A stretch of 64,000 nucleotides of DNA from a virus. The stretch spans positions 15,588 through 79,587 of IMG/VR virus record IMGVR_UViG_3300023440_000003; one strand, given 5' to 3'. Both the position numbers and the translations under genes were made by a program. The notes beneath the pieces were generated by a model. The model was not told where the DNA came from. It saw nothing but the letters and a program-made list of their open reading frames with translations, and ran no database searches. Position 1 is the stretch's first letter, and every line of letters begins with the position of its first letter. Shown here one piece after another: positions 15,355 through 39,891 of this stretch.

Positions 15355-15737
15355 AACTTTCCTCCTGAAAGGATTTTGATTAGCTTTAATGGCACGGGTT
15401 TTTCTTTAGACATTAGGTAGCAGACTTCTCGTAAAAATAATCTAATTCTTTCTGGATCTTGATTCATTGCTTTGCATATGTTTGTGAAATGGTAAAGATA
15501 TTGTTCATTATCCTGTCTGAAAAAATAATACACAGCATCTGCTATCGAAAATGGATTTTTATCTTGTAGATCTTTTAGTGCTTGTAATGTGACTCTATGC
15601 ATGACTTCCAGAATATAGTCATTATGTTTGTTTTGTGCTAAAGATCTTTCGAAGGTTTTCCTTAAACTATCTATGATAGTTTTAGATGAAGGATTCTTCA
15701 CATAGGATAGCTTATATTGGTTTGTTTTAATTGTCAA
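15351..15737 (-). CDS. Hypothetical protein
   Basis: 128-aa ORF coupled to the downstream gene; start uncertain (TTG). Confidence 0.6.
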   Translation of the reverse strand: MTIKTNQYKLSYVKNPSSKTIIDSLRKTFERSLAQNKHNDYILEVMHRVTLQALKDLQDKNPFSIADAVYYFFRQDNEQYLYHFTNICKAMNQDPERIRLFLREVCYLMSKEKPVPLKLIKILSGGKL

Positions 15738-30017: not shown

Positions 30018-31268
30018 TCAATTTGCATTTGTACACAAAATTAATACTTTATCTGGATACTTTGAATGTCTAAACACTAATATTTGAACAAATCCTGATA
30101 TATTTCGTGGGGTTAGTATTATTTTTTGAGTTTTGGGGTTAAGTTTCTCTAAAAGTGCACTTATCTTTCTATACAAGGCTATATATTCTGTGGTTGACCC
30201 CAGTAACCTGAAGCCTTTATTATATAGCTTTTTGATAAGATTTCTTAAATCGTCCTTATATTTGTATTGTATTATTGCTATGTTTATATCTGGCTTATTT
30301 ATTTCAGCATTCTCGAAGAATCTGTCGTATAGGTGAATGGTATGTCGACCATAAAGTTCAACGCCAGCACTTTTTGCTGCCCATAATATAGGGTTTATGT
30401 ATCCATAATAACCGTTCTTTTTATTATGGTCTCTTTCTTTATCTAAAAATACAGCAGCTTTTTTGGATAATGATCTGGGAAGTTTTAACATTACTTTATC
30501 GTCAGTTTTTACGAAATATAATCCAAGAAATTTGAATTCCTCATTTTTCCTTATTGGTGTGATACGGATCTTAAATTTATAACGTCCAAATACAGACTTA
30601 ATGTAGTTTATGATTTTTTCATCACTTAAACTAGATTGAACTCCTATTAAAAAATCATCAGCATATCTGAATGTCACCATCGATAGCGATCTATTATATG
30701 CTTTTGTAATCACATTAAGTCTGTAAGTTAAGCCCGTAGTAAGTATTCCGGCAAGTATAGGTGATGTAGGTAATCCATAAGGGATATGACCATTTATGAA
30801 ACAATACGTTTTAATTACGTCTATGAATCTATCTATATCCATACCTAACTGCAACTTATTTACCTTAGCTATAAAATTTATTGAATCGTCCAATGCGACG
30901 TCATAAGTTTCATATAATTTTTTTGGGAGAACATATTTATATAGGTCTAATCTGTCAGGAGTTATTGATTCGAAGTAATTTATTACATCCACTTTAAAAA
31001 ATCTTCTGTCATCTTGCAGTATATGAAAGAGTTGTAGGAATTTTTGGCCTGAATGTACTGATGAGATAGCGAAATCAGTACAGTTAGTTTCGACATATTT
31101 TAGATATATGATGTAGTGTGTACTTAGAGTGTTATGCAAAATTTTTAGAACTTTTTCGTAAGGACCTAACGGTATATATATTTTTTTAAACTTATCTTTC
31201 TTCTTTATTTGTCTGACTCTATACACTTTGGGTATTTCTTTCTTGAAAATTTTTGTTTCAAACTCCAT
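30018..31268 (-). CDS. Reverse transcriptase, retron-like/unclassified
   Basis: KVDVINYFESI, IPYGLPTSPIL, FRYADDF, FLGL; strong SD AGGAGGTG. Confidence 0.88.
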   Translation of the reverse strand: MEFETKIFKKEIPKVYRVRQIKKKDKFKKIYIPLGPYEKVLKILHNTLSTHYIIYLKYVETNCTDFAISSVHSGQKFLQLFHILQDDRRFFKVDVINYFESITPDRLDLYKYVLPKKLYETYDVALDDSINFIAKVNKLQLGMDIDRFIDVIKTYCFINGHIPYGLPTSPILAGILTTGLTYRLNVITKAYNRSLSMVTFRYADDFLIGVQSSLSDEKIINYIKSVFGRYKFKIRITPIRKNEEFKFLGLYFVKTDDKVMLKLPRSLSKKAAVFLDKERDHNKKNGYYGYINPILWAAKSAGVELYGRHTIHLYDRFFENAEINKPDINIAIIQYKYKDDLRNLIKKLYNKGFRLLGSTTEYIALYRKISALLEKLNPKTQKIILTPRNISGFVQILVFRHSKYPDKVLILCTNAN

Positions 31269-31289
31269 GCATCACCTCCTTTTCTACTT

Positions 31290-31314
31290 CTTATATCTCT
31301 AAATATGCTAAAAT
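31290..31314. promoter_or_regulatory. Back-to-back promoters: AGATATAAG (-, RT) and TGCTAAAAT (+, RNAP)
   Basis: Both motif classes occur in the 56-nt divergent gap. Confidence 0.55.
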
Positions 31315-31324
31315 GTTCAAAGAA

Positions 31325-34300
31325 ATGGTCAAGGAATTCATTCAATTTGTCAAGTCAGTATTTCCGATAGCCACACAGAATCGTGAGATTAAACTGGATA
31401 ATGTCTATACAGATGCTTCCAAAATACCCGATGTATCTGATTATCAAATCCAAAAAAGATACAGACTTGAAGGCCGAAGTTTAAGTGTACCGGTTTATGC
31501 AGATTTTACTCTGTATGAAAAAGGCAAAGTTGTTGCTAAAGCACAGAAGTTGCTAATCGCTCGCGTACCGTTAAAACTTCCTAGAGGAACTTATCTGTTT
31601 AAGGGTAATGAGTTCTTTGTTGCAAATCAGCTTCGTTTGAAGCCAGGAATTTATGTCAGAATTAGAGAAAACGGAGAAGTGGAGGCCCATTTCAATTTAG
31701 CTAAGTGGACTTTTAAAGCTTATTTTAATGGAAGTAAAGTTTATGCTAAGTTCACAAGAGGTCCTGCTATACCTTACTATACATTACTGAAGCTATTTGG
31801 TGCTTCTGAAGATGAGATTAAAAATGCATTTGGCGAACTATATAATGAGAACATTTTATATGACGAAGATGCTATTCTTGGGTGGTATCGTGCATATTAT
31901 GGAGAAGGTACTAAGGAAGAAGCTGTAAAAACATTCAAAAGTATATTATCCTCCGGTTACAGGTTTGATCCGGAAATTTCCAGGCATCTTTTAAATATAG
32001 AAGCATCAAACATTAATAAAGATGTCCTGCTTGCAGCTTTAAAAAAACTTATCGCAGTACGGAGAGGTGAGAAAGAACCTGATGATAGAGATGCTTTGTT
32101 TTTTAAACAGCTATTGGAAGAAAGCGATATATTAAGTGAACATTTTCATAATATGAAATCAAAAGTTATTTTTAAAATACGAAGAAATCTAGTATTAAAA
32201 GACAAAATAAGAGATATTGTTCCTATAGCTGTATTTCAGAGTGTTGTAGACAATGTTTTTACTAAAGATCTTGTAAATCCTTTAAAGCAAACAAATCCAG
32301 TAACCATTGCAGAAAACAATTCCAGAGTAACTATTTTTGGAGAAGGAGGTATTAAGTCAGAATATGCAGTGCCTTATCAGGCTAGAGCACTTAATCCGTC
32401 GCATTTTGGTATTGTAGATCCAGTAAGGACTCCAGAATCTTCAAAGGTAGGGGCTGTATTATTTAGAACAATTGGAGCTGGTAAAGATCCGAAGACTGGT
32501 CTACCAGCAACTGAAGTTTTAGATGTGAAAACAGGAAAGCTTAAACGGATAACATCAACTGAATTTTTTAATTCAAGGGTTGCTTTTCCTGACCAAATTA
32601 AAGAAGTAAAAAATGGTAAGGTAGTTTTTAAGAACAAGTCTCAGGTAAAAATACTATACCGTGGAAATATTGAAATAGTTCCTGCATCTAAAGTGGATTA
32701 TGTTGTGCCTAACTACATGAATGTTTTTACTGTTTCGACCCTATTTTTACCTTTTTTACAATCATTACACCCTAACCGTGCTTCTAAAGCAGCAAACACC
32801 ATAACACAAGCACTTCCATTAAAATACAGGGAACCTCCTTTGGTCCAAAGCGCAATATCAGAAAATTTATCTATGGTGGATATTGTAGGCAGGCAATATT
32901 CAGTGAGATCTCCTGTGGATGGAGAGATAAAATCGGTTAAGAATAATGTGATAGTCATCAAAGATAAAAAAGGAAAAGAGCATAAAATATCTTTAGCTGA
33001 TTATCTTCCATTGAACCAAAATAGTTTCATCTCTATGGAAATTAAAGAAAATATAAAACCTGGCGTAAAGGTAAAAAAGGGAGATTTGCTGGCAGATACT
33101 AATTTTACAAAAGATGGTCAGTTGGCGTTAGGAGTGAATGCTATTACTGCTTTAATGCCGTTCAAACATTTAAATTTTGAGGATGGTATTGTGGTATCAG
33201 AGTCTTTTGCTAAAAAGCTTACTTCTCAACGTTTATTTCACTTTCGTTATCCTTTAGGTTCTGATGTAAAAATTGACAAAGAACTTTATCGATCACTTTA
33301 TCCTCATGAATTACTTGAAGACAATTATAAAAAGTTGGATGAGGATGGAATAATAAAGAAAGGAGCAGTAGTTAAAGATGGTGATATATTAATAGCGGGC
33401 TTAGTAAAAAAGAAGGAAAGTAAAATAGACGAAATAATTGCTCGGTTAAACAGACGTTTAGTTCAACCCTGGGTAAAAAAGCCATTAATTTGGGATAAAG
33501 AGTTTGATGGCATAGTAAAAGACGTAATTAAGACAAAACAGTTTATATCTATAACTGTTCTTACTGAAGAACCAGCAATAGTTGGAGACAAATTGACAAA
33601 CTCTCATGGTTCAAAAGGAGTCATTGTGCACATAATTCCTGATGATCAAATGCCTAAACTTCCGGATGGTCGAACTGTAGAGGTAATCATAAATCCTGTC
33701 TCTATTCTTGGAAGAAATAATCCATCTCAGGTTTATGAAATGGTAGCTGGAAAAGTAGCTGAAAAACTAAAACAGCCTTTAAAAATTCCAGCATTTGGAG
33801 TAGATGACACTCATAAGTTATTAAAAAATCTCACCAAACAATATGGGGTTTCGGATACTGAAACTTTAATTGATCCAGTTACCGGAAAGAAAATCCCCAA
33901 TGTTATGGTTGGTCCTATGTACATTTATAAACTGGAACATCAAGTAGAAGAAAAAATGTCAGCCAGATACAAAGGAGCCTATGATCAGTGGGATATGACT
34001 CCAGCAAAAGGTGTTGATGAACCTGGACAGGCTGTAGGGCTTATGGAAATATATGCTTTATTGGCTCATGGTGCAGGAAATGTATTAAAAGAAATGGCTA
34101 CATGGAAGTCAGAGCGTAATCCTTTATTCTGGGAGGCCATAGAAAATAACTTACCTCCTCCGCCCCCAAAGACTACATTTGTTACTAAAAAATTCGAGAA
34201 CTTATTGAGAGCTGCTGGAATTGATGTAAAAAAAGAAGGGCATCTCGTAAGGATAATGCCACTTACTCAAAGCCAGGTTAAATCTCTCACACAAAATCGT

Positions 34301-37300
34301 TTCATAAAAAATGCCAAGATGGTAGTAGCTGGTACTTTAAAAGAAGAAAGTGGTGGTCTTTTTGATCCAGAACTAACTGGTGGTTTACGTGGAGATAAAT
34401 GGGCTGCTATTAAGTTACCGGATAAGTTACCTTCACCTATCGTATTGCGTGTGTTTAGCTTATTATTGAATATGAAAGAAAAAGATATTAAAGATATAAT
34501 TCTTGGTGTTAAAAAAATTCAGGGAATGTCTGGTTCTGAAGCTATTCTCAAACTGTTAAAGTCTAAATCTTTAGACGAATATTTGAAGCAAGCTCAGGAT
34601 ATGGCTGACGTAGCTAAGCGGTCTAATAATTTGAACGAGTTAAATAAAGCTAACTTGATTATACGTTTTATAAAATACATGAAGGAGAATAACATTAAAT
34701 GGGAGGAATTCTTTCTCGATCGCTTGCCGGTACTCCCTCCTCAATTCCGTCCTGTGTATGTTGATAAACATAACAGGTTATTTCATTCAGATTTTAATCT
34801 TGTATACAGAGATATTAAATTACTGGCGGACCAGATCCAGAGAGCAAAGCAGGAAGGTTTACCTGAAGACGAGATTAACAAAATGAAGAAAGATTTATAT
34901 GAATCTATTGAAATTCTGTATGGTCTGGCGGATCCTTCTTCTAGATATTATGGTAAACGTAAACCCAGAGGAATACTTGACTACATTCATGGACCAAAAC
35001 CTAAAGAAGGTTACTACCAGCACAAAGTACTCCGTAAAACTCAGGATTTATCTGGACGCTCTGTTATTGTTCCTAATCCTGGCCTCCATCCAGATGAAAT
35101 CGGTATCCCAGAGGAAATGGCGTGGAAGATATTTGAACCTTTTATTTTAGCTAAACTTAAATCAGAGTTTGCTATGTCTCCTGCTGAAGCAAGGATCGAA
35201 CTGGCTAATCGAGGTGATAAGGCCAGAAAAGCTTTGGAATTGGTCGCCAGCGAACGGTTAGTTATTGTTAATCGCGCACCTTCACTTCATAAATACAATA
35301 TGCTCGCTTTTAAACCTAAAATTGTTCCAGGACATGCTATACATTTTCCAAACGTCGTAGTATCTATGCAAAGTGGTGATTACGATGGCAACTCGTTAGC
35401 TGGTGATGAATATGTGATTTATTCGTTGAAAGATGAAATATATTTTCGTCCTATTAAAGACTTTCCTAGGGAAGATTCTCCGTACAAGATTAGTAAAAGA
35501 GGTGTTAAATATTTTAAAGTTCCACCAGGCATCAAGGTTCTTGCCTATGATTATAATACAAACACCTTGAAGTGGGATAAGGTCAGTAGTTTTAGTGAAC
35601 ATCCAGTTCAGAAAGTTTATAAAGTTAAGACTTATCATGGAGCTTCGGCTGTAGTTACTGGAGATCATTCTTTACTTGTTTTTGATCCAAGAGATTATAC
35701 TTTCAAACGTATGTCTCCTTTGGAGATAATGCGTAATAAAAACAGGCGTTTTTTTGTGGTCAGACCTAAGAAAATTCGTCCTCTCGTAGAGGTTCCGCGT
35801 ATAAAATTAGGCGATTTGGAGTTAGATTTGGATTTTGAACTTGGTTATTTAATTGGATGTTATGTTGGGGATGGTTGGGTTGACAATCGGAATGGTTTTT
35901 ACATTGCTAGTATGGATAACGGAATTTACGGTAAGCTTAAAAGACTAATAAAGCGGAAATTTAATGTGGCTATGAAAGCTAGAAAAGCTGTAACCAAGAT
36001 TTTTAAGGGTTATGAAGCAACTTCTAGAAAGTTATACGCTAATTTACCTAAGGAATTCAGACGATTTTTAAAAGAAAATTGTGGAAGCAAAGCTAGTGAT
36101 AAAAAATTACCTTCTCCTATTTACTTTTGTTCGCCTGTTATTTTCAGATTAGGATTATTATCTGGTTTACTTGATACGGATGGTACAGTGCATCAATCTT
36201 CTGAAGGTAGGTTCACTATCCTTTATAATACTATTTCTGAAGTTTTAGCAGATGAAGTTAGAATATTAGCTCTTAGTCTTGGTATCAGATCTACGATTAA
36301 AAAGGTTAAGAATACAGATGGTGTTGAGTATTTTCAGATTATATTTTCCTGCAAGGATTTAGCTGAAGCTGTTTTTGGAAAAGGTATACACCTTAGACTA
36401 TATCATACAAAGAAAAAGAAGATTCTGAGTAAGCTTTTTGAAGTAAAGCGAGATAAACGTTTCAATGGCAGTTTGTTCAATATTGTTCCTATATCTGAAG
36501 AGTTAATATATCTTTTGAATTATTCATATCGAAAAGGTTCTAGATTTTCAGCTGATTTCATCTTAGATACTATTAAGCGTGAATACGTTCCGAAGGAAAT
36601 GATATCTTCTATATTACATAATGTTCATCCTAGACATGAACATTTAAAAAAACAGTTCGAGTTACTTAAAGCTTTTATAGAGACAGATGATGTATGGTTT
36701 GATTTTATTACAGAAGTCATTCCGCAGCAGGAAGTTCCTACCTATGATTTAACTACAGAATCTAAGACTTTTCTGTGTGGTATAGATTTCATAGTTTATG
36801 ATACTACTGCAATACATGTTCCAGTAACTCAAGAAGCTCTGCAGGATGCAGTAAAGCTTTTACCTTCTCAGAATTGGCTTCATGAGGGGCGTCCTAAAGA
36901 AATATGGCTTACGCCAAAGATTGAAGCAATATGGGGGCTCTATAAAATAACCCGAGACGGAAAAGATAAAAGCAAACAGTTTAAATTCAATAATGTAGAT
37001 GATGCATTACGTGCTTTTCACAGAGGTGATATTGACATTACGGATACTGTTGTGATTAATAATCAAAAAACTACTTTAGGTAGAGCCTTAGTTAACCGTA
37101 TTTTACCTAAAGATTTCAGAGATCCTAATATTAAACTAGACAAAACCACTATAAATAAATTGATGCGGAATATTTTTGAAAAATATGGCGGTAAAGAAGG
37201 TGCCAGGGTTGCAGGAGAATTGAATAAACTTGGAGGAGATTTTGCTTATCTTATCGGATTTAAATTGTCTTTAGATGATTTTAGTCCTAAATTTGAGGAT

Positions 37301-38845
37301 TTATTGGACAAAGCGTTTGTAGAATCGCTTAAAACTAAAGATCCATCAAAAATTAACCGTAAGGCTATGGAGCTGCGTCAAAAAATAATGAAGTCTTTAA
37401 TGAAGCAGGATGATAACACTTTGGTACAATTAGTTAAATCCGGTACACGCGCTAAAAAAGATTCCTTAATGCAACTTTTAGCTTCGCCAGTACAGCTTGC
37501 TGATGTATATGATCGTCCAATTCCTGTAATAGTTCCAAGAGGATATGCTAAAGGTATGGACACTATTGATTACTTATTTGCTTCTTATGGTGCTAGAAAA
37601 GGAGCGATAGAAAAAACAGTTAAAACAGGGGAACCTGGAGAGCTTTCAAAAGAACTTGTTGCTGCAGCGATAGATTATGTAATAACTATGGAAGATTGTG
37701 GAACTAGAAAAGGAATCGTTATGGATGTGGATAAGGCAGATGCTTTAAACAGAGCTTTAGCAGAAAATGTGGTTAAAAATGGTAAGATTATTGCAAAACG
37801 TAATGAGATAGTTGATGGTAAAGTATATGAAAAACTCAAAGAATCAGGAGTGAAACAGGTAAAGGTAAGATCACCTTTGACATGTGAAGCCCCTGATGGT
37901 ATATGTGTGTTATGTTATGGTGCTAAACCTGATGGCACAATGCCTCATATAGGAGAATACGTAGGAATTAAGAGTGCACAGTATTTAAGTGAACCTGTAA
38001 CACAGATGACTATATCTTCTGTACATACTGGTGGACTTGTTAAAGATATGGGCACTTCTTTTCAGGATATTAGAGCCGTAATGGAAATGAGTAATGTGCC
38101 TGCTAGAGCCACGGTTGCTAAAGTTGCTGGCAAAGTAGAAAAAATTGTGAAACGGCCAGAAGGCGGATATGAAATAATAATAGATGGAAAATCTCATATC
38201 ACTTCTCCATGGGTTGAACCTAAAGTTAAAGAAGGAGATGAAGTAGCCAAGGGTGATATTTTAACTACTGGTTTACCCCATCCAAAAGATATCTATGATG
38301 CCGCAGGCTTGGAAGCTGCACGTAATTTTGTAGTGAATTATCTTGATACTGCTTATCAACAAAATGGTATGAAGTTAGACAGGCGTCATTTTGAAATTAT
38401 AGGCAAAGTTATGTTTGATACAGCTGTTGTTACTGATCCTGGTGACACGGATTTAGTTCCCGGAGATTACGTTAAAATTAATAAACTCAAAGCTTTAAAC
38501 GCACAGATGCCTCCAGAAATAGACGTATCTTTAGAAGACGCAGCAGGTAGAATCTTGGCAACTCCTGTAGATAAATATCCTGCAGGTACTAAGTTAACTT
38601 CTGAGATAATAGATGATTTAAGAAAGAAAAAAATAAAAACCGTAAAAGTTAGAAGCAAGCCAGCATCATTCAAACCCGTAGTTAAAGGTATAGAACAATT
38701 GCCATTGCTTCGTGATGATTGGCTTACAAGAATGGCTTATAGAGATATTAAAAATACTGCTATAGAAGGGGCTCTACGTTCATGGAGTTCTGACTTACAA
38801 GGCTACAGTCCGATACCAAAATTAGTGTATGGAGAGACTCCATGA
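31325..38845 (+). CDS. rpoBC: Fused beta/beta-prime multisubunit-type DNA-dependent RNA polymerase, intein-containing
   Basis: Beta: NQLRLKPG, RTPES, NFEDGIVVSE, GDKLTNSHGSKG, YKLEH..EKMSAR, GLMEIYAL. Beta-prime: GGLFD, LPVLPP..RP, SGRSVI, NRAPSLH, DYDG, RSPLTC, EPVTQ..HTGG, RHFEII. Start is 31325 or 31313. Confidence 0.95.
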   Translation: MVKEFIQFVKSVFPIATQNREIKLDNVYTDASKIPDVSDYQIQKRYRLEGRSLSVPVYADFTLYEKGKVVAKAQKLLIARVPLKLPRGTYLFKGNEFFVANQLRLKPGIYVRIRENGEVEAHFNLAKWTFKAYFNGSKVYAKFTRGPAIPYYTLLKLFGASEDEIKNAFGELYNENILYDEDAILGWYRAYYGEGTKEEAVKTFKSILSSGYRFDPEISRHLLNIEASNINKDVLLAALKKLIAVRRGEKEPDDRDALFFKQLLEESDILSEHFHNMKSKVIFKIRRNLVLKDKIRDIVPIAVFQSVVDNVFTKDLVNPLKQTNPVTIAENNSRVTIFGEGGIKSEYAVPYQARALNPSHFGIVDPVRTPESSKVGAVLFRTIGAGKDPKTGLPATEVLDVKTGKLKRITSTEFFNSRVAFPDQIKEVKNGKVVFKNKSQVKILYRGNIEIVPASKVDYVVPNYMNVFTVSTLFLPFLQSLHPNRASKAANTITQALPLKYREPPLVQSAISENLSMVDIVGRQYSVRSPVDGEIKSVKNNVIVIKDKKGKEHKISLADYLPLNQNSFISMEIKENIKPGVKVKKGDLLADTNFTKDGQLALGVNAITALMPFKHLNFEDGIVVSESFAKKLTSQRLFHFRYPLGSDVKIDKELYRSLYPHELLEDNYKKLDEDGIIKKGAVVKDGDILIAGLVKKKESKIDEIIARLNRRLVQPWVKKPLIWDKEFDGIVKDVIKTKQFISITVLTEEPAIVGDKLTNSHGSKGVIVHIIPDDQMPKLPDGRTVEVIINPVSILGRNNPSQVYEMVAGKVAEKLKQPLKIPAFGVDDTHKLLKNLTKQYGVSDTETLIDPVTGKKIPNVMVGPMYIYKLEHQVEEKMSARYKGAYDQWDMTPAKGVDEPGQAVGLMEIYALLAHGAGNVLKEMATWKSERNPLFWEAIENNLPPPPPKTTFVTKKFENLLRAAGIDVKKEGHLVRIMPLTQSQVKSLTQNRFIKNAKMVVAGTLKEESGGLFDPELTGGLRGDKWAAIKLPDKLPSPIVLRVFSLLLNMKEKDIKDIILGVKKIQGMSGSEAILKLLKSKSLDEYLKQAQDMADVAKRSNNLNELNKANLIIRFIKYMKENNIKWEEFFLDRLPVLPPQFRPVYVDKHNRLFHSDFNLVYRDIKLLADQIQRAKQEGLPEDEINKMKKDLYESIEILYGLADPSSRYYGKRKPRGILDYIHGPKPKEGYYQHKVLRKTQDLSGRSVIVPNPGLHPDEIGIPEEMAWKIFEPFILAKLKSEFAMSPAEARIELANRGDKARKALELVASERLVIVNRAPSLHKYNMLAFKPKIVPGHAIHFPNVVVSMQSGDYDGNSLAGDEYVIYSLKDEIYFRPIKDFPREDSPYKISKRGVKYFKVPPGIKVLAYDYNTNTLKWDKVSSFSEHPVQKVYKVKTYHGASAVVTGDHSLLVFDPRDYTFKRMSPLEIMRNKNRRFFVVRPKKIRPLVEVPRIKLGDLELDLDFELGYLIGCYVGDGWVDNRNGFYIASMDNGIYGKLKRLIKRKFNVAMKARKAVTKIFKGYEATSRKLYANLPKEFRRFLKENCGSKASDKKLPSPIYFCSPVIFRLGLLSGLLDTDGTVHQSSEGRFTILYNTISEVLADEVRILALSLGIRSTIKKVKNTDGVEYFQIIFSCKDLAEAVFGKGIHLRLYHTKKKKILSKLFEVKRDKRFNGSLFNIVPISEELIYLLNYSYRKGSRFSADFILDTIKREYVPKEMISSILHNVHPRHEHLKKQFELLKAFIETDDVWFDFITEVIPQQEVPTYDLTTESKTFLCGIDFIVYDTTAIHVPVTQEALQDAVKLLPSQNWLHEGRPKEIWLTPKIEAIWGLYKITRDGKDKSKQFKFNNVDDALRAFHRGDIDITDTVVINNQKTTLGRALVNRILPKDFRDPNIKLDKTTINKLMRNIFEKYGGKEGARVAGELNKLGGDFAYLIGFKLSLDDFSPKFEDLLDKAFVESLKTKDPSKINRKAMELRQKIMKSLMKQDDNTLVQLVKSGTRAKKDSLMQLLASPVQLADVYDRPIPVIVPRGYAKGMDTIDYLFASYGARKGAIEKTVKTGEPGELSKELVAAAIDYVITMEDCGTRKGIVMDVDKADALNRALAENVVKNGKIIAKRNEIVDGKVYEKLKESGVKQVKVRSPLTCEAPDGICVLCYGAKPDGTMPHIGEYVGIKSAQYLSEPVTQMTISSVHTGGLVKDMGTSFQDIRAVMEMSNVPARATVAKVAGKVEKIVKRPEGGYEIIIDGKSHITSPWVEPKVKEGDEVAKGDILTTGLPHPKDIYDAAGLEAARNFVVNYLDTAYQQNGMKLDRRHFEIIGKVMFDTAVVTDPGDTDLVPGDYVKINKLKALNAQMPPEIDVSLEDAAGRILATPVDKYPAGTKLTSEIIDDLRKKKIKTVKVRSKPASFKPVVKGIEQLPLLRDDWLTRMAYRDIKNTAIEGALRSWSSDLQGYSPIPKLVYGETP
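35393..36802 (+). mobile_element. Intein (470 aa, Ser1, C-terminal Asp, Thr+1) with LAGLIDADG endonuclease in the RNAP catalytic loop
   Basis: SLAGDEYV start; block B VTGDHSL; LIGCYVGDG and LSGLLDTDG; ends TYDLTT..TFLCGIDFIVYD; flanks align to NADFDGDQMAVHVP. Confidence 0.9.
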
Positions 38846-39891
38846 AGATAAGGGTTGCAGAGATTATCTTAGTAGATACACGCAAGGGTAAATTAAAGGT
38901 AAAGTGTCTTGATAACGAAGAGTTATTCACCATCACCAGAATGGCTGTGATACTTGGATCTTCTAATTATTATTCTGGTTTTTTTAAATATCCAGAGAAG
39001 GGCGATAGAGTGCTGTTATTAGAACAGGAAAATGATCCTGATCCTGTTATCTTACCAATATTTGTACCTGAATCTAGGATAATGTTCGAAGATGAAGATA
39101 ATGAATTTTATCTTGTGGAATTGCTTCATTTAATAAACAATCTGGATGCTCAGCCAGGAGATTATGTGATTTATGGAAAAAATGATAATTATGTAATAGT
39201 TCGGGCGAACGGTAATATTATCTTTAAGACTGGCTTTACTAAAGTATTAATGTCCGCTTCCATTAATATAGGAGGTTTTTATACTGATGCTATGAATTTT
39301 ATATTTAGAAGCCATTTAGGTTTATTTGCGTTGAAATTACTTTATAATAGAAACGTTGGACCTTCAGCTATTTTTGAAATCAATCAGCCTCCCAATTTAT
39401 CTGGCGATTCTCCACTTGTTGCATTTAAGGCTGGCAATACTATAAAGAACTTTTTAAGCTTTGAACTTGATAGAAATGACGGAAGTATTAGGTTGTATTC
39501 TGATAGTTTTACTATTAAAATAGATTCTGATGGTAATCTAGAATATGAAACTGAAGGGAATAATAAAGTGATTATTCGTCAGAATCTAGATCATACTATT
39601 GAAGGCAAAGCCGATTTAAGAGTTAAACAAGATATATCTACTCAGGTATCTGGAAATGCATCTATTCAAACGTCAGGAGACATGAATATTAAAAGTAAGG
39701 AACTGGTTATACAAGTTACAGGTGATGCTGTGATCAAAGCCACCAATGCTATAGTGGATGCAACTACTGTTACCCTAGGGAAATCGCCTCAATCGCCTAT
39801 AGTTACGGGATTTCCTGATGGAACTATGCCAGTGTGTTATGTTACCGGAGCTCCAATACAGGGAAGTACTACATGTAAGGCAGGAAAATGA
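38842..39891 (+). CDS. Baseplate spike (gpV/gp5-like)
   Basis: N-terminal OB-fold pattern (YPEKGDRVLL) and C-terminal beta-helix repeats (IEGKA, VSGNA, TSGDM, VTGDA). Confidence 0.7.
   Translation: MKIRVAEIILVDTRKGKLKVKCLDNEELFTITRMAVILGSSNYYSGFFKYPEKGDRVLLLEQENDPDPVILPIFVPESRIMFEDEDNEFYLVELLHLINNLDAQPGDYVIYGKNDNYVIVRANGNIIFKTGFTKVLMSASINIGGFYTDAMNFIFRSHLGLFALKLLYNRNVGPSAIFEINQPPNLSGDSPLVAFKAGNTIKNFLSFELDRNDGSIRLYSDSFTIKIDSDGNLEYETEGNNKVIIRQNLDHTIEGKADLRVKQDISTQVSGNASIQTSGDMNIKSKELVIQVTGDAVIKATNAIVDATTVTLGKSPQSPIVTGFPDGTMPVCYVTGAPIQGSTTCKAGK

Follow-up and report, generated by a model that had tools for sequence, protein, structure and literature searches.

An intein in the catalytic loop of a phage RNA polymerase accompanied by Asn at the third catalytic Asp position

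Introduction

Few motifs in biology are as conserved as the DxDGD aspartate triad of multisubunit RNA polymerases (RNAPs). We analyzed here a 64,000-nucleotide stretch of viral DNA (the window; positions 15,588 to 79,587 of the IMG/VR record IMGVR_UViG_3300023440_000003), in which the gene for a single-chain beta-beta' RNAP is interrupted within the Mg-binding loop, and the third Asp of the triad is encoded as Asn. From the comparison of intein-bearing and intein-free homologues, it is almost certain that the insert is a genuine and probably still mobile class-1-type intein lying directly after the third metal-ligand position, and that the Asn at position -1 has been maintained by selection in association with the intein, in a polymerase gene that has to yield a functional enzyme.

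Inteins that end in Asp or Gln have been described, and the passages of PMC4031507 dealing with them name the study of Amitai et al. 2004 and the inteins of Chilo iridescent virus (CIV) ribonucleotide reductase and Pyrococcus abyssi Pol II; the terminal Asn is replaceable by Asp or Gln, which are still able to cyclise. As to the other classes of such elements, class 2 inteins have Ala1 together with Ser at G:6, class 3 inteins have Cys at F:4, and bacterial intein-like (BIL) domains are without a +1 nucleophile (PMC4031507). The paper defining the RNAP-encoding Caudovirales does not mention inteins, and full-text searches of the literature returned no account of either an intein at the RNAP DFDGD loop or the Asn state.

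Results

The intein and its junctions

The intein host is a gene for a single-chain beta-beta' multisubunit-type RNAP located at 31313..38845 on the plus strand, as assigned from the open reading frame (ORF), its translation and Pfam. One open frame of 2530 codons (31253..38845, plus strand) spans both intein junctions. The frame is open from TTG at 31253, and the database protein P0002 (2510 aa), beginning at ATG 31313, is the window protein, identical across the regions searched. Pfam matches above the cut-off were found for the beta domains Rpb2_6 and Rpb2_3 followed by the beta' domains Rpb1_2 and Rpb1_5, along with weaker matches to Rpb1_1 and Rpb1_3. With beta and beta' domains combined in a single ORF of 2530 aa, the protein belongs to the phage single-chain beta-beta' RNAP family known from metagenomes. 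The protein also retained RAPSLHK..., the remaining part of the beta' domain 2 motif, as well as the HVP continuation.

The DNA reads GAT TAC GAT GGC AAC / TCG TTA GCT GGT GAT GAA at the N-junction (35378-35410) and ATA GTT TAT GAT / ACT ACT GCA ATA CAT GTT CCA at the C-junction (36791-36823), where the slash marks the junction, giving the precursor DYDGN/S...VYD/TTAIHVP. The Mg-binding loop of the N-extein (35378..35392, plus strand), which aligns with DFDGD of 95 intein-free homologues, is thus encoded as D-Y-D-G-N in place of the three-Asp D-x-D-G-D of the multisubunit RNAP beta' loop (NADFDGD). The third catalytic Asp position is occupied by Asn(-1) (aa 1380, codon AAC, 35390..35392, plus strand), and the intein ends in Asp (aa 1850, GAT, 36800-36802). 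The junctions SGDYDGN/S and VYD/TTAIHVP had been proposed in the initial annotation; they were confirmed in the DNA at both codons, and the boundaries N/S and D/T agreed with the alignment to 30 allelic inteins. The removal of residues 1381-1850 yields DYDGN-TTAIHVP, equal in length to DFDGD-TMAVHVP of the 95 empty alleles, so that canonical excision leaves the right register with Asn at the third Asp position, again as proposed. The further suggestion that the insert was placed one codon early is formally possible at the DNA level, yet protein homology fixes the junctions at N/S and D/T. Removal of 35390..36799 as an intron at the RNA level was also rejected: the insert is predicted with confidence to fold into a HINT domain, and the terminal strands of this domain adjoin the exteins.

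The intein consists of 470 aa, Ser1 to Asp470 (35393..36802), and was recognized by Pfam, alignment, AlphaFold2 (AF2), Foldseek and phmmer as a HINT splicing domain with a nested LAGLIDADG homing endonuclease; this and all the following features lie on the plus strand. The alignment of allelic inteins located block A (SLAGDEYVIY, 35393..35422) with the nucleophile Ser1 (TCG, 35393-35395), block B (VVTGDHSLLVF, 35651..35683) with Thr at 35657-35659 and His at 35666-35668, and blocks F and G (PTYDLTTESKTFLCGIDFIVYD, 36737..36802). The last segment contains the block-F Asp (36746-36748), Lys at the position equivalent to the block-F His (36764-36766), as assigned by motif alignment of K-T-F to H-x-F, and the penultimate Tyr (36797-36799) preceding the terminal Asp. 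Pfam and alignment identified the first LAGLIDADG motif at 35840..35878, with its acidic residue encoded by GAT at 35870-35872, and the second at 36149..36187, with GAT at 36179-36181. The C-extein starts with TTAIHVPV (36803..36826), including the Thr+1 nucleophile (36803-36805), in the same register as xMxVHVP of the empty alleles. When the insert was searched against Pfam, LAGLIDADG_3 scored above the cut-off (55 bits) and Intein_splicing below it. The AF2 model of residues 1366-1865, based on a 56-row alignment, showed a predicted local distance difference test score (pLDDT) of 89.1 and a predicted template modelling score (pTM) of 0.89. The best Foldseek matches to this model were the endonuclease-bearing inteins TliVMA 7qss (E 9e-23), PI-PkoII, PI-PfuI and PI-SceI, and PI-PkoII was also matched by sequence in phmmer (E 6e-10).

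With regard to the splicing class, the intein shares with class 1 inteins Ser1, the block B T-G-D-H (35657-35668), the block-F Asp (F:4) and Thr+1, as well as the predicted HINT fold with its termini together, the nested LAGLIDADG and the in-frame insertion at a conserved site. It differs in the C-terminal His-Asn (G:6-G:7), which is replaced by Tyr-Asp (36797-36802). Class 2, class 3 and BIL identities were ruled out by Ser1, Asp at F:4 and Thr+1 together. The block-F Asp was the sole intein column invariant in both the 56- and 62-sequence alignments.

Intein-free alleles

The search with the N-extein collected 114 homologues, which were mostly metagenomic single-chain beta-beta' proteins, most of them of about 2000 aa when intein-free. 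All of the insert-free homologue proteins (95/95) read D-x-D-G-D followed by x-M-x-V-H-V-P. The scans of IMG/VR were carried out in two pairs. In the first pair, D[FY]DGN[TA]MxVH was found at 0 loci and the DGD version at 61 loci. In the broader pair, the DGD version was found at at least 119 loci, with an RNAP motif upstream in 68 of the 72 checked, while the four intein-free matches to DGN represented one unrelated gene without upstream RxPSLH and were discarded. Real intein-free DGN loci therefore numbered 0 in both scan pairs, and the empty alleles carried DGD as the initial annotation had expected.

The exact bacterial motif NADFDGNQMAVH was searched for in 185,579 species genomes and matched once, in a metagenome-assembled genome (MAG). 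It was an intein-free bacterial rpoC reading NADFDGNQMAVHVP (L108:224-259, JAKPSH010000012.1). This match is a probable assembly artefact, as rpoC is broken up between contigs and the codon in question is about 240 nt away from a contig start. The outcomes named beforehand as contradicting the annotation were thus absent: decay of the gene was not seen, and an intein-free DGN homologue was not accepted.

Two clades of inteins at the same site

The phmmer search with the intein against 1.84 billion representatives resulted in 388 matches at E<1e-10. Nearly all of the best intein matches occupied the same site in phage RNAPs, and all were mutually homologous. The junctions of the database proteins were mapped by patterns anchored on blocks F and G, and trees were constructed with FastTree. 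The intein tree of 127 members, built with the terminal residues removed, was divided into two clades, namely Asn-ending (n=50) and Asp-ending (n=77) inteins. Asp-ending inteins are rare in general, as stated in the initial annotation, but at this site they form the majority.

Residue 1 was Cys, Ser or Thr in 77/77 members of the Asp-ending clade, in which the residue at the block-F His position varied. In the Asn-ending clade, 47 of the 50 members had Q, D, E, L, A, H, M or G as residue 1 and were therefore without the N-terminal nucleophile Cys, Ser or Thr, and Glu was present at the block-F His position in 47. The members of this clade read DGD/x...S-N/T, with the block B His absent, Asp (not Cys) at F:4 and Thr+1; they include P0003, the closest relative of the window RNAP, as well as P0015, P0019, P0126, P0128, P0131 and others. 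The clade looks class-2-like, judging from Ser at G:6 and the missing residue-1 nucleophile, although it is not an orthologue of KlbA and has Thr instead of Cys at +1. It may use an undescribed splicing route, perhaps via the extein Asp(-1).

DGN was detected in 13 proteins with both junctions mapped, all of which (13/13) had Asp-ending inteins, and in 0/50 of the Asn-ending ones (Fisher p = 0.0016, uncorrected for phylogeny). The overall identity among the seven full-length DGN proteins was only about 30%; nevertheless, neither Asn(-1) nor the terminal Asp varied. Twelve further RNAP loci with ADFDGN/C were found in IMG/VR, followed by K-x-F and [YW]D/T where the C-junction lay within the locus, and the +1 residue was T or S in all DGN alleles. 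The anticipated DGN...D pair in occupied alleles was accordingly observed for this intein type. A swap of Asn and Asp had originally been suggested; the terminal Asp alone does not indicate a swap, as 64 of the 77 Asp-ending inteins adjoin a normal DGD. In the ADFDGNC scan, 16 of the 28 matches lay by chance in genes other than RNAP, as is to be expected from a pattern with 14 fixed bases, and the short ORFs ending after DGNC are for this reason not split polymerases.

Two other intein-like sequences at this site were observed. The locus L070:6744-7703(-) (IMG/VR 3300018017_000005) encodes a 290-aa DGN/C...VVWD/T mini-intein that has lost the endonuclease domain and offers a compact construct for experiments. 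The protein P0044 (1753 aa; longest contig 157 kb) ends 25 aa past DFDGD/SVAGDTKVLV..., a sequence resembling SLAGDEYVIY of the window, and could represent a natural split intein at the RNAP catalytic loop whose N-fragment is very short.

Origins of the Asn and its covariation with Lys

The distribution of DGN on the intein tree requires at least three origins, all within the Asp-ending clade: a well-supported clade of 11, P0159, and the intein of the window, which forms a long branch apart from the others. The extein tree was constructed from 200 aa on each side of the loop with the trait column masked, and its six DGN rows require six changes, each adjoining DGD relatives (P0014 with P0012, P0133 with P0050, and P0017 with P0026). 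The neighbour of the window protein, P0003, is about 70% identical and has DGD together with an Asn-ending intein of the other clade. These trees indicate that the presence of Asn is linked to the type of intein inserted and not to the descent of the polymerase. No compensating extein column tracking DGN was found within 200 aa on either side of the loop.

Of the intein columns distinguishing the DGN clade from the 64 Asp-ending inteins with DGD, the one equivalent to the block-F His was the most conspicuous. Lys was present at the block-F His position in 11 of the 13 DGN inteins, including the window lineage. This residue was found in neither the 64 Asp-ending inteins with DGD (Tyr in 34, Trp in 16 and others in 14) nor the 50 Asn-ending inteins. 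Since Lys never occurred in the 64 DGD inteins that likewise end in Asp, it is tied to Asn(-1), not to the terminal Asp. The covariation of Asn(-1) and Lys was seen in two independent lineages, one of which is the window, and this convergence points to a functional pairing of the two residues. The window intein has Ser1 rather than the Cys1 of the main DGN clade and retains the block B His, which is kept in only 2/13 DGN inteins. Because the canonical Ser1 and block B His are kept, unlike in the main clade, the window intein would make a clean experimental construct.

Another substitution in the triad was seen in P0043, P0205 and P0284. They carry DFNGD, in which the second catalytic Asp is changed to Asn, belong to two independent lineages, and all have Asn-ending inteins. 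The Asn of DFNGD sits in a deamidation-prone Asn-Gly context and was not seen in any intein-free allele. The D-to-N events on the tree thus comprised at least three at -1 and two at the second Asp.

Genomic context

The large records containing DGN alleles comprised two genomes with terminal repeats, which were 176 and 178 kb in size and 100% complete, and a third genome that was 93% complete. A second beta' locus was not found in these three records with Pfam Rpb1_2, which detected the intein-bearing gene only. A spare RNAP copy serving as a backup was thus rejected for the complete DGN-allele genomes, each having a single beta' locus. The 79.6-kb viral record to which the window belongs was judged 44% complete, and one RNAP beta' locus and no second was found on it.

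The stop codon of the RNAP gene overlaps the ATG of the next ORF (38842..39891) at 38842..38845 of the window, which suggests translational coupling of the two genes. On the minus strand, a 416-aa ORF (30018..31268) abuts the start of the RNAP gene.

Discussion

Fate of the Asn at the catalytic loop

The results described above showed that a widespread phage polymerase family encodes Asn at one position of the triad only beside a particular intein, and the window represents an independent lineage with the same signature of Asn and Lys. We tentatively favour, with a probability of about 40%, a splicing-linked conversion in which Asn(-1) would lose its amide nitrogen during or just after splicing, and the encoded DxDGN loop would mature to the active DxDGD. 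Splicing would begin with the N-O acyl shift at Ser1 and the transfer of the N-extein to Thr+1, and Asp470 would then cyclise to an anhydride to free the intein, as for other reported Asp-ending inteins. The amide nitrogen of Asn(-1) would be lost around these steps, so that the mature loop would be DYDGD. Two routes are conceivable for this loss. The C-terminal anhydride could acylate the Asn carboxamide, and hydrolysis of the imide would result in a literal exchange of N and D; alternatively, the activated Asn ester could pass through an isoimide or succinimide that is hydrolysed with the assistance of Lys. The conversion is favoured because Asn was absent from every empty allele examined, no compensating extein change was found, and the origins of Asn at -1 all fall in the Asp-ending clade. 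Moreover, the C-terminal anhydride is a plausible local acyl donor, and the intein would gain an evolutionary advantage.

Several points weigh against the conversion. To our knowledge, the known mechanisms of protein splicing never change the -1 residue, and the conversion itself was not seen in any computation. When phylogeny is considered, the link between Asn at -1 and the terminal Asp rests on only three events. P0159 and P0267, the latter from the main DGN clade, carry DGN without Lys. The Asn of DFNGD at the second Asp lies beyond the reach of the junction chemistry. In addition, the recurrence of D-to-N changes implies that each single mutant was viable from the outset, a pattern more consistent with a tolerated Asn.

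Such a tolerated Asn is the quite possible, though less favoured, explanation in which canonical splicing leaves Asn in place and the polymerase works as DxDGN. The side-chain carbonyl of Asn would serve as the third Mg ligand at a modest cost and be purged from the intein-free alleles, and the intein would need or prefer a neutral Asn at -1, with the block-F Lys optimising later. This is the sole outcome predicted by established class 1 chemistry (PMC4031507), and the related two-barrel polymerase PolD needs only two of the three canonical Asp (PMC4996933). The repeated single-step changes at both positions of the triad, the replacement of Asp by the isosteric Asn alone and never by E, G, H, A, Y or V, the lack of Lys in P0159, and the commonness of the DGN type, including in the complete 176-178 kb genomes, all agree with a working enzyme. 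However, substitutions in the aspartate triad impair catalysis about as strongly as deletion of the trigger loop (PMC3105419). The third Asp was also invariant in the intein-free alleles examined except for the one MAG match near a contig end, the exteins show no change that would compensate for DGN, and the 64 allelic Asp-ending inteins that keep Asp at -1 argue that Asn is not generally needed for splicing.

Cleavage without ligation is improbable. In this case Asn(-1) would cyclise on the activated carbonyl in an asparagine-lyase-like manner and Asp470 would cut the C-junction, so that the polymerase would consist of two non-covalent pieces, and the third ligand would be either the newly formed C-terminal carboxylate or isoasparagine derived from the succinimide, the side chain of which resembles that of Asp. 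Hydrolysis of a succinimide does yield Asn or isoAsn (PMC4031507), beta' is naturally split in many relatives, which are about 1440-1530 aa long and end about 90 aa past the loop, and P0044 terminates within an intein-like N-fragment at this very site. On the other hand, the conservation of Thr or Ser at +1 in all DGN alleles points to ligation, a natural split exactly after DGN was not found, the short ADFDGNC matches being chance, and a chain break in the catalytic loop would be unprecedented. It is even less credible that the Asn arose from a sequencing error or marks a dying gene with drifting catalytic residues. The long branch of the window intein would fit such decay, but the frame is intact across 2530 codons with all RNAP domains present, none of the splicing blocks and neither of the LAGLIDADG motifs is disrupted, the fold was predicted confidently, and the gene type is the sole RNAP copy in complete genomes. 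The same two-residue state with the covarying Lys occurs in more than 20 divergent sequences, always with Asn as the replacement of Asp, and this recurrence of the N...D pair excludes a sequencing error. The splicing-linked conversion was on balance placed slightly ahead of the working DxDGN enzyme, and the remaining probability belongs to an explanation not considered here.

If the splicing-linked conversion is true, a gene from which the intein DNA had been precisely deleted would encode an inactive DGN polymerase. The enzyme could then not do without the intein as its activator, and the intein would not easily be lost. A selfish element not removable by simple deletion would amount to an addiction strategy. 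The conversion would represent a new post-translational chemistry and a new form of indispensability of a selfish element, and possibly a tool for protein engineering. If the enzyme instead works with Asn, RNA polymerase enzymology would gain the unexpected case of a multisubunit RNAP that functions with two Asp and one Asn.

Comparison with known systems

The listed RNAP inteins (Mja rPol A', Mja and Nph rPol A'', and eukaryotic RPA2, RPB2 and RPC2) resemble the intein of the window in occupying conserved, buried positions near the active centre (PMC1635734). Those whose sites are described in that paper differ in lying in the second-largest subunit, and an altered catalytic residue is unreported for them. 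With respect to structure, TliVMA 7qss, PI-PkoII 2cw7, PI-PfuI 1dq3 and PI-SceI likewise combine HINT with a nested LAGLIDADG (Foldseek E 9e-23 to 1e-12). The identity to these four inteins is 12-20%, and the window intein is distinguished from them by Tyr-Asp in place of His-Asn, Lys in place of the block-F His, and an extra N-terminal extension with a DFPR motif, which is common to the RNAP-loop family.

In archaeal PolD DP2 of P. abyssi, an intein is also inserted in the metal-binding loop of a double-psi-beta-barrel polymerase (PMC4996933), and the P. abyssi Pol II intein likewise ends in a residue other than Asn, namely Gln (PMC4031507). The host enzyme and the insertion point are, however, different from those in the window; PolD naturally uses two Asp, and recoding is unreported there. 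The known Asp- and Gln-ending inteins share with the window intein a terminal non-Asn residue able to cyclise and the absence of the penultimate His in an otherwise class 1 intein. In contrast to these inteins, which have canonical exteins, the Asp-ending state dominates the allelic family at the RNAP loop (77/127), and the adjoining catalytic Asp of the extein is recoded as Asn, paired with Lys in block F.

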